This document shows positions 1-8,206 of a DNA stretch of 8,206 nt, one piece after another; positions within the stretch are counted from its first letter, which is position 1; every line of letters begins with the position of its first letter. The notes under the pieces were generated by a model that was not told the origin of the DNA, did no database searches, and was given only the letters and a program-made list of their open reading frames with translations. The DNA is taken from the IMG/VR virus record IMGVR_UViG_2671180490_000005, one strand, 5' to 3'. The DNA comes from a virus (Duplodnaviria > Heunggongvirae > Uroviricota > Caudoviricetes). The position numbers were made by a program, and so were the translations under genes.

Positions 1-32
1 CGGGCGGTTTTGTCGTTTATGGAGCGTGAGGA

Positions 33-5626
<5,594 letters not shown>

Positions 5627-5633
5627 NNNNNNN
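5627..5633. other. Run of 7 ambiguous bases (N-gap), probably a scaffold or assembly junction.
   Basis: The seven n characters are seen directly. The J reading frame upstream (frame of 33) and downstream (frame of 5635) differ, and the sequence on either side is not colinear in J (C-terminal end of J versus mid-J). Confidence 0.95.
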
Positions 5634-5634
5634 C

Positions 5635-7110
5635 AGCACAGCCAGGACGACGGAAACCACATACCGCTTCAGGCAGCTGGCGCTGGGGAATTACAGTCTG
5701 ACAGTCCGGGCGGTAAATGCCCGGGGGCAGCAGGGCGATCCGGCGTCGGTATCGTTCCGGATTGCGGCACCGGCAGCGCCTGTCACTATTGAACTGATAC
5801 CGGGGTATTTTCAGATAACGGCGGTCCCGAAACTGGCTGTATATGACCCGACGGTGCAGTTTGAGTTCTGGTTTTCGGAAAAGCGGATTGCGGATATCAG
5901 GCAGGTTGAAACCACAGCACGCTATCTTGGCACGGCGCTGTACTGGATAGCCGCCAGTATCAATATCAGGCCGGGCCATGATTATTATTTTTACGTTCGC
6001 AGTGTGAACACCGTTGGCAAATCGGCATTCGTGGAGGCCATCGGTCGGGCGAGCGATGATGCAGAAGGTTATCTGAATTTTTATAAAGGGTTGATCAATA
6101 AAACGCATCTCGGCAAGGAGTTGTGGACGCAGATTGATAACGGTCAGCTTGCGCCGGACCTGACTGAAATCAGGACGTCCATTACGAATGTCAGCAATGA
6201 AATCACGCAAACCGTCAATAAAAAACTGGAAAATCAGAGTGCTGCAATCCAGCAGATACAGAAAGTTCAGGTTGATACAAATAATAACCTGAACAGCATG
6301 TGGGCTGTGAAGCTGCAACAGATGAAGGACGGACGCCTTTATATTGCGGGTATCGGTGCCGGTATTGAGAATACGCCAGCAGGAATGCAGAGTCAGGTGC
6401 TGCTGGCGGCAGACAGGATTGCGATGATTAATCCTGCGAATGGCAACACAAAGCCGATGTTTGTTGGTCAGGGCGATCAGATATTCATGAACGACGTGTT
6501 CCTGAAATGCCTGACGGCTCCGACCATTACCAGCGGCGGTAATCCTCCGGCATTTTCCCTGACACCTGGCGGACGGCTGACGGCGAAAAATGCCGATATC
6601 AGCGGTAACGTGAACGCGAACTCCGGGACGCTCAACAACGTCACGATTAATAAGAACTGTCGGGTTCTGGGAAAATTGTCCGCGAACCAGATTGAAGGCG
6701 ATCTCGTTAAAACAGTGGGCAAACCTTTCCCACGGGACTCCCGGGCACCGGAGAGGTGGCCATCAGGGACCATTACCGTCAGGGTTTATGACGATCAGCC
6801 GTTTGATCGGCAAATTGTTATTCCCGCGGTGGCGTTTCGCGGTGCTAAACATGAGCGGAAGAATAACAATATTTATTCGTCATGCCGCCTGATAGTGAAG
6901 AAAAACGGTGCTGAAATTTATAACCGAACGACCCTGGATAATACGCTGATATATACGGGTGTTATTGATATGCCTGCCGGTCACGGTCACATGACGCTGG
7001 AGTTTTCTGTATCGGCATGGCTGGTAAATGGCTGGTATCCCACAGCAAGTATCAGCGATTTGCTGGTTGTGGTGATGAAGAAAGCCACTGCAGGCATCAC
7101 GATTAGCTGA
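5635..7110 (+). CDS. J: Host-specificity protein J, allele B: a 5'-truncated 3' portion (about 491 codons) with a divergent receptor-binding C-terminal region. This is the copy physically linked to lom.
   Basis: The frame is open from 5635 ([60 protein letters not shown]...) to TGA at 7108-7110, and contains the listed ORF 5854-7110. It is colinear with lambda J from about residue 670 to the end. The region 5635 to about 6100 is a diverged copy of 2790-3250 and 4250-4710; from about 6100 to 7110 it diverges strongly from allele A apart from conserved islands such as [19 protein letters not shown] and [23 protein letters not shown]. Confidence 0.85.
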
Positions 7111-7129
7111 ATTTTATAACCCAGATACG

Positions 7130-7153
7130 GGCACCAGAAATGGTGCCTTTTTT
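7130..7153 (+). terminator. Predicted intrinsic (rho-independent) terminator immediately downstream of J.
   Basis: Stem ggcacca (7130-7136), loop gaaa, stem tggtgcc (7141-7147), followed by tttttt (7148-7153). It lies 20 nt after the J stop codon. Confidence 0.6.
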
Positions 7154-7177
7154 ATTGCAGAAAAGCGAGAGGTAATT

Positions 7178-7777
7178 ATGCGTAAAGTTTGTGCAGCCAT
7201 TTTGTCCGCAGCCATTTGTCTGGCCGTATCCGGTGCGCCTGCATGGGCGTCTGAACATCAGTCCACGCTGAGCGCCGGGTATCTTCAGACCCATACTGAT
7301 ATGCCAGGCAGCGATGACCTGAAGGGCATTAACGTGAAATACCGTTATGAGTTTACGGACACGCTGGGGCTGATTACGTCATTCAGTTATGCCAACGCTG
7401 AAGATGAGCAAAAAACGCATTACAGCGATACCCGCTGGCATGAGGATTCCGTGCGTAACCGCTGGTTCAGCGTGATGGCGGGGCCGTCTGTGCGCGTGAA
7501 TGAATGGTTCAGCGCGTATGCGATGGCGGGTGTGGCTTACAGCCGTGTGTCGACTTTCTCCGGGGATTATCTTCGCGTAACTGACAACAAGGGGAAAACG
7601 CACGATGTGCTGACCGGAAGTGATGGCGGTCGCCACAGCAACACGTCTCTGGCGTGGGGAGCTGGCGTGCAGTTTAACCCGACCGAATCCGTGGCCATTG
7701 ACCTTGCTTATGAAGGTTCCGGCAGTGGTGACTGGCGCACTGACGGTTTCATCGTGGGTGTCGGTTATAAGTTCTGA
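7178..7777 (+). CDS. lom: Lom-like outer-membrane beta-barrel protein (Ail/Lom/PagC family), 199 aa.
   Basis: ATG at 7178 is preceded by GAGAGG (7167-7172). The N-terminus MRKVCAAILSAAICLAVSGAPAWA|SEHQ looks like a signal peptide with an AxA cleavage site. The C-terminus ...IDLAYEGSGSGDWRTDGFIVGVGYKF closely matches lambda Lom, including the terminal aromatic residue typical of outer-membrane proteins. The internal motifs LKGINVKYRYE and SAYAMAGVA are also shared with lambda Lom. The position directly after J is the canonical lom location. Confidence 0.9.
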   Translation: MRKVCAAILSAAICLAVSGAPAWASEHQSTLSAGYLQTHTDMPGSDDLKGINVKYRYEFTDTLGLITSFSYANAEDEQKTHYSDTRWHEDSVRNRWFSVMAGPSVRVNEWFSAYAMAGVAYSRVSTFSGDYLRVTDNKGKTHDVLTGSDGGRHSNTSLAWGAGVQFNPTESVAIDLAYEGSGSGDWRTDGFIVGVGYKF

Positions 7778-7804
7778 TTAGCCAGGTAACACAGTGTTAT
7801 GACA

Positions 7805-7830
7805 GCCCGCCGGTTCAGGCGGGCTTTTTT
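7805..7830 (+). terminator. Predicted intrinsic terminator downstream of lom.
   Basis: GC-rich stem gcccgcc (7805-7811), loop ggttca, stem ggcgggc (7818-7824), followed by tttttt (7825-7830). It lies 28 nt after the lom stop codon. Confidence 0.8.
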
Positions 7831-7841
7831 GTGGGGTGAAT

Positions 7842-8168
7842 ATGGCAGTAAAGATTTCAGGTGTACTGAAAGATGGGGCGGGTAAACCTGTCGTAAATTG
7901 TGCGATTGAACTGCGGGCCAGAAGAACCAGTCCGACCGTTGTGGCACACGTTGTTGCCACTTGCGTGACGGACAATAACGGTGCTTATGTGATTGAGGCT
8001 GAGCCGGGGTATTACGAGGTTGCGCTTCACTGTAACGGCTGGCAGCCAACCCGTGTCGGGGATATTGATGTGGCACCGACTGATGCACCGGGGACACTGA
8101 ACGCGTTTCTGAATGCACCAAAGGATGGTGATTTACGTCCGGAGGTGATGAAGTGTCAGCGCCAGTGA
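7842..8168 (+). CDS. stf: Side-tail-fibre N-terminal module (Stf-like), 108 aa. It ends abruptly, so it is either truncated or a stand-alone N-terminal domain.
   Basis: ATG at 7842 with a GGGGTG Shine-Dalgarno-like sequence upstream. MAVKISGVLKDGAGKPVVNC...PGTLNAFL...RPEV matches the lambda Stf N-terminus (MAVKISGVLKDGTGKPVQNC...PGTLNDFL...RPEV). The ORF stops at TGA 8166-8168, and all three forward frames hit stop codons within about 20 nt, so a simple frameshift cannot extend it. Confidence 0.7.
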   Translation: MAVKISGVLKDGAGKPVVNCAIELRARRTSPTVVAHVVATCVTDNNGAYVIEAEPGYYEVALHCNGWQPTRVGDIDVAPTDAPGTLNAFLNAPKDGDLRPEVMKCQRQ

Positions 8169-8206
8169 TATAAGACGGTAATTCGCCATTTGGATTGTCC
8201 GCTCCA

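Follow-up and report, generated by a model that had tools for sequence, protein, structure and literature searches.

A lambdoid side tail-fibre gene cut short at the left end of IS21

Why does an open reading frame that resembles the side tail-fibre gene of phage lambda, stf, end after only 108 codons, close to the edge of the DNA that carries it? The window analysed here is an entire draft contig, CXFP01000191.1 (GCA_001257715.1, 8206 bp). By direct reading, the ORF extends on the plus strand from ATG 7842 to TGA 8166-8168; an automated ORF list gives it a GTG start at 7836 and thus 110 aa. The length of 108 codons reported by an earlier, sequence-only reading was confirmed, as were its stop codons in all three forward frames within about 20 nt (TGA 8166 in the frame of the ORF, TAA 8171 and TAA 8179). 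That reading offered three explanations: a stand-alone N-terminal adaptor, disruption of the fibre gene by an insertion or moron, and a mosaic junction. The insertion was borne out, and the other two were refuted. The ORF is almost certainly what remains, at the 5' end, of a side tail-fibre gene of a lambdoid prophage that was cut by transposition of IS21, with later loss of DNA associated with IS600.

The sequence to the left of the junction is that of a Stf-type fibre. The ORF shares 52% identity with lambda Stf (orf-401) over residues 1-104 of both proteins (E = 6e-33). A match to Pfam PF08400 ('Prophage tail fibre N-terminal'; E = 1e-36) covers the first 104 of the 134 profile positions. 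The similarity to the lambda Stf N-terminus noticed in the sequence-only reading thus stands, but its proposed end at ...DLRPEV does not, as the fibre sequence runs on for two more codons (MK) to 8153 and only CQRQ and the stop are foreign. The last codons of the window are GAT TTA CGT CCG GAG GTG ATG AAG TGT CAG CGC CAG TGA TAT AAG ACG GTA ATT C... The break had also been placed at the boundary of the tail-fibre shaft; it instead cuts through PF08400 at profile position 104/134, where there is neither a domain nor a shaft boundary.

An uninterrupted version of the gene defines the breakpoint to the base. When window 7700-8206 was compared by megablast with complete E. coli genomes, nine matched 7700-8153 at 99.3% DNA identity, and every one of the nine matches stopped at 8153. 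The best match, in the enteroinvasive E. coli (EIEC) strain CFSAN029787 (locus L001), is a continuous 470-aa 'prophage tail fiber N-terminal domain-containing protein' whose residues 1-104 are 100% identical to those of the window ORF. At the breakpoint, the intact gene reads ...GAGGTGATGAAG followed by CGCTTTGAGG (protein ...EVMK-RFEEMVAQ...), and the window reads ...GAGGTGATGAAG followed by TGTCAGCGCC. A DUF4376 gene comes after the 470-aa fibre gene in CFSAN029787 and overlaps it. Further 3' of these two genes lies a frameshifted ipaH, encoding an E3-ligase effector of the type III secretion system, in the position of a post-fibre moron; the three genes occupy L001 6142-9950. An effector or moron directly downstream, like this ipaH, was considered as a cause of the truncation and rejected. 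The corresponding locus of S. sonnei FORC_011 has no ipaH.

To the right of the junction, IS21 sequence starts at base 8154 (TGTCAGCGCCAG...), exactly where the fibre homology ends. The stretch 8154-8206 is identical at 53/53 positions to IS21 on the pINV plasmid pCFSAN029787_01 (L003 3505-3557), where istA and istB lie downstream, and at 52/53 positions to IS21 of pRP4. A search of a 28-Gb collection with window 8150-8206 matched IS21 copies at 100% identity (E = 8e-21). The last 53-57 nt of the window match thousands of chromosomal and plasmid sites, and the annotated matches lie ~100 nt upstream of istA/istB, under the label 'IS21-like element IS21 family transposase / helper ATPase'. Judged from the sequence matches, the breakpoint is not a chance feature. 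An IS3-family end, as the first annotated match ('IS1397 family transposase') would imply, was rejected; that IS1397 copy is itself interrupted by IS21 at this point.

The reference IS21 is 2130 bp long (L003 3505-5634), with 99.0% DNA identity to the IS21 of pRP4, which is located between parDE and aph(3') in record CP152305.1. Its proteins match the NCBIfam IS21 transposase model NF033546 (284 bits, cutoff 160) and the IstB model NF038214 (302 bits, cutoff 200), the helper also matching Pfam PF01695 (IstB_IS21), and its two ends align as imperfect inverted repeats, TGTCAGCGCCA and TGTCAACGCCA. As in other members of the IS21 family, the element in the window has a terminal inverted repeat that starts 5'-TGT..., here matching the known IS21 left end. 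The window ends ahead of any IS gene, istA and istB being seen in the reference copies. In an alignment of four copies (the window, RP4, pINV and a chromosomal copy inside IS1397), the sequences are shared from TGTCAG onwards except at a single A/G polymorphism, and show no relationship further upstream. The chromosomal copy (L002) is complete; it is bounded by TGTCAG...TTGACA and flanked on both sides by the direct repeat GAGAAA, which together fix the terminus of the element. Since the flanks of the four copies diverge exactly at TGTCAG and the repeat marks the same limit, base 8154 is the left end of IS21. It is this end sequence that supplies both the CQRQ tail with its stop and the stops in three frames. 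GAAG precedes IS21 at window 8150-8153 and also at the unrelated pINV site (L003 3501-3504), and a third site has GAAA. The shared GAAG is probably a coincidence, or may reflect a weak target preference.

Table. Features of the window and order of the elements at the fibre locus of S. sonnei FORC_011
Sequence	Feature	Coordinates	Strand	Basis
Window	3' part of tail-tip gene J	5634..7110	+	Pfam Ig_J_second, Phage_Tail_Tip, Ig_GpJ_C
Window	lom (Ail/Lom outer-membrane protein)	7178..7777	+	PF06316; Ail/Lom annotation in homologous locus; lambda gene order
Window	Terminator-like G+C-rich hairpin and T run between lom and stf	7804..7825	+	Consensus scan
Window	Lambda-Stf-like side tail-fibre gene, 5' part (codons 1-104), pseudogene fragment	7842..8153	+	Homologue identity and PF08400
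Window	Read-through tail Cys-Gln-Arg-Gln and stop closing the truncated ORF, IS21-encoded	8154..8168	+	Direct reading
Window	First 53 nt of IS21 (left terminal inverted repeat); contig ends within	8154..8206	+	53/53 and 52/53 matches to IS21 copies
FORC_011, 1	stf codons 1-104, then IS21 nt 1-428			
FORC_011, 2	Complete IS600 within istA, reverse orientation, 3-bp duplication GTT at its flanks			
FORC_011, 3	IS21 nt 424-1098			
FORC_011, 4	Second IS600, lacking ~88 nt at its start, with IS21 nt 1098 as its direct neighbour (fusion)			
FORC_011, 5	Right end of the second IS600, intact, next to fibre codon 250			
FORC_011, 6	Fibre codons 250-470, still open, ~95% DNA identity to the EIEC gene; then DUF4376 gene			

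The junction is not confined to this contig. An exact look-up of the 108-aa product found it also on the complete chromosome CP010829.1, that of S. sonnei FORC_011, and on six further draft contigs. With the window, these make eight assemblies (seven drafts and CP010829.1), and in 8/8 the junction is identical. The NCBI names of the product are 'hypothetical protein FORC11_1838' and 'prophage tail fiber N-terminal domain-containing protein [Shigella sonnei]'. All seven draft contigs end within IS21, 31 or 53 nt from its left end and 16 or 38 nt past the stop codon, as is usual where a multi-copy repeat interrupts a short-read assembly. The window accordingly ends 53 nt into the element because it is a whole short-read contig and the assembler was unable to cross the repeat. 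'Partial' proteins that are identical as far as they go, of 102 aa on at least 1000 contigs, 99 aa on 101 and 104 aa on 45, are named S. sonnei (102 and 99 aa) or multispecies Shigella (104 aa). Their presence on so many Shigella contigs indicates that the same IS boundary breaks very many draft assemblies. The isolate behind the window is probably S. sonnei, to judge by the junction that it shares, the names given to the protein, and an accession series that was used for the drafts of Holt et al. 2012.

Outside this set of assemblies the junction was not encountered. Megablast detected no stf-IS21 junction in the complete E. coli genomes of the collection, and an exact-pattern scan with the 36-nt junction did not find it in species-representative genomes or metagenome contigs; our guess for the genome contigs is that the collection holds one genome per species. 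Support for the junction comes from S. sonnei assemblies only.

An origin of the stop and the junction in sequencing error or chimeric assembly deserves attention in a contig that is mis-assembled upstream, where triplicated J segments are joined at N's within 1-5633, and in which the junction lies 53 nt from the end. The sequence-only reading had itself allowed for an error behind the stops at 8166-8183. Such an origin is nevertheless exceedingly improbable, given that the junction recurs unchanged in the complete FORC_011 chromosome and in seven independent drafts, that truncated versions of the same protein stand at contig ends on >1000 S. sonnei contigs, and that the change consists of 53 nt of a defined element and not of a point error.

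What lies downstream of the stf fragment was read from FORC_011 (locus L004), the only complete genome of the lineage examined, in which the fibre gene is at L004 10001-10327. The sequence-only reading had recommended looking downstream for IS transposases, and there FORC_011 has istA fragments of IS21 together with IS600, in a nested IS21/IS600 structure at the stf junction (L004 10313-13859; Table). The IS21 copy at this site is dead: IS600 divides its istA, and it lacks istB as well as the right end. The remnants of istA are a 109-aa N-terminal piece, which matches NF033546 with 60.7 bits (E = 1.6e-16), under the 160-bit whole-protein cutoff, and a 238-aa rve piece. Within the 20-kb FORC_011 locus there was no match to IS21 nt 1099-2130 (istB and the right end), nor to fibre nt 313-745, the Ala/Gln-rich shaft of codons 105-249 (L001 6454-6886). 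The fusion of the second IS600 to IS21 nt 1098 is an illegitimate junction. With the right end of IS21 missing, no target-site duplication is demonstrable at the stf site of FORC_011. We infer that the isolate of the window, which contributes 53 nt of IS21, has the same downstream structure.

These data bear directly on the idea of a deliberate two-gene design, in which the 108-aa product would serve on its own as N-terminal adaptor and a separate downstream gene would encode the distal fibre. A shaft ORF starting within a few nucleotides would have spoken for such a split gene, as the sequence-only reading pointed out, but the next ORF in FORC_011 lies 86 nt downstream and is the N-terminus of istA, IS600 genes coming afterwards. 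Downstream come ORFs for pieces of istA and for IS600 transposases, with no shaft gene among them; shaft codons 105-249 are absent from the locus, and PF08400 is cut at 104/134. The ORF itself ends inside the IS21 inverted repeat, and the homologue with 100% identical residues 1-104 is a single continuous gene of 470 aa. Most of the tail-attachment domain is indeed kept (PF08400 1-104/134), and an in-frame distal part of the fibre (codons 250-470) persists 3.5 kb downstream in FORC_011, and both speak for a split design; we consider that design to have a negligible chance of being correct. A swap of the distal fibre module by homologous or illegitimate recombination between phages, which would fit the high mosaicism of lambdoid fibre genes and the early end of similarity in the phage collection (at ~7890-7930, with no match beyond about 7930), is just as improbable, as what lies beyond 8153 is not phage DNA; it is the terminus of IS21, which on plasmids and chromosomes alike sits immediately ahead of istA.

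The prophage that received IS21 can be described from the upstream part of the window and from FORC_011. Window 5634-8206 is 99.5% identical to L004 7794-10365, and is the only stretch colinear with the complete FORC_011 genome; it holds the 3' part of J, for which the automated list gives a C-terminal ORF at 5854-7110, and lom as the upstream neighbour of the fibre gene, which fixes the J-lom-stf synteny. The 1919-aa 'J' ORF of the window is not real. Window 1-5633 is an assembly chimera of three overlapping J segments, in which 1-2062, 2064-3274 and 3472-4735 correspond to L004 5759-7820, 7078-8287 and 7025-8287 at 92-95% identity, with N's at 1448, 2063, 3471 and 5627-5633 joining the segments. 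The segments probably derive from paralogous J genes of several prophages, merged in scaffolding or gap-filling.

At L004 1-3800 of FORC_011, only IS600 fragments separate the YbcO and antiterminator Q genes from gpM-L-K-I-J, and no lysis, terminase or head genes were found between Q and the tail genes. Lacking these, the FORC_011 prophage cannot make particles, and with the head and lysis modules lost the fibre gene was under no selection. For the same reason, the junction has no evident biological consequence. At the other end, directly 3' of the fibre and DUF4376 genes, FORC_011 carries on the opposite strand a ZnuA/ABC-3/ABC_tran operon (L004 15300-18749), in the usual position of prophage-end cargo. 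From its Pfam families, this operon reads as a sitABCD-like metal transporter.

The simplest history for the locus that the combined results suggest is the following, with IS21 arriving in a prophage that, we propose, was already defective or decaying. IS21 would have transposed between fibre codons 104 and 105, so that translation would enter its left inverted repeat for 4 codons and then meet a stop. One IS600 may have inserted at about codon 249 of the fibre gene and another into istA, after which everything from IS21 nt 1098 to IS600 nt ~89 would have gone in a single deletion of ~1.55 kb. Fibre codons 250-470 and the DUF4376 gene are left as orphans. The order of these events, and a single ~1.55-kb deletion as the route of loss, are what the FORC_011 arrangement suggests. 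The IS21 event is a case of neutral, IS-driven decay.

Could the remnant still do something? The ORF has the PF08400 N-terminal tail-attachment domain, in partial form (1-104/134), and the location after J and lom that are typical of Stf proteins; in place of a continuous in-frame shaft and distal receptor-binding part, it closes at codon 108 within IS21. It is thus a pseudogene fragment of the lambda Stf-type family and not a functional member, and is presumably without function. A role in trans, in which the 108-aa remnant would be expressed and act on the side fibres of other lambdoid phages, is very unlikely. It could, for example, compete for the tail-tip docking site with the fibres of co-resident or superinfecting lambdoid phages, Stx phages included, and so change their host range or their yield. 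The points that touch on this idea are the intact reading frame, the retention of most of the attachment domain, and the presence of the remnant in 8/8 S. sonnei assemblies examined. Beyond the intact reading frame nothing supports it. The attachment domain is cut at 104/134, and the prophage is otherwise a wreck.

The early stop is best seen as an IS21 insertion scar at a contig end. It reveals no new architecture of the fibre, nor does it mark a moron junction or an effector locus. The case also carries a practical lesson, namely that an ORF which stops some 50 nt or less from the end of a draft contig should be checked against IS termini first. The junction between stf codon 104 and the IS21 left end could, in addition, be of use as a lineage marker in S. 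sonnei.

Each component of the locus has a well-known counterpart. IS21 (= IS8) of the IncP-1alpha plasmids R68/RP4 encodes the istA transposase and the istB AAA+ helper; the window shares its left end (52/53) but holds the first 53 nt only, and the FORC_011 copy is without istB and the right end. With the side tail fibre Stf of lambda (orf-401/orf-314 in lambda PaPa; order J-lom-stf-tfa) the window shares J-lom-stf synteny and PF08400. The intact 470-aa homologue differs from lambda Stf in its distal half, and is followed by a DUF4376 gene and not by lambda tfa. The stf gene of laboratory lambda is also inactivated, by a frameshift that divides it between orf-401 and orf-314, whereas the gene in the window was inactivated by an IS insertion and internal loss of DNA; that both have lost stf is a coincidence. 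Further IS21 copies have been reported in S. sonnei chromosomes. In its passages on pseudogenes, the S. sonnei study of Hawkey et al. 2020 (PMC7373316) puts down about 50% of pseudogenes directly to IS insertion, and describes the conserved ones as almost all IS-interrupted. Those passages do not mention the stf site. The stf locus belongs to the same kind of decay, with interruption by an IS, more IS insertions and loss of DNA, and a state common to isolates. The truncation of stf is textbook IS-mediated pseudogenisation in Shigella, and as such known in kind.
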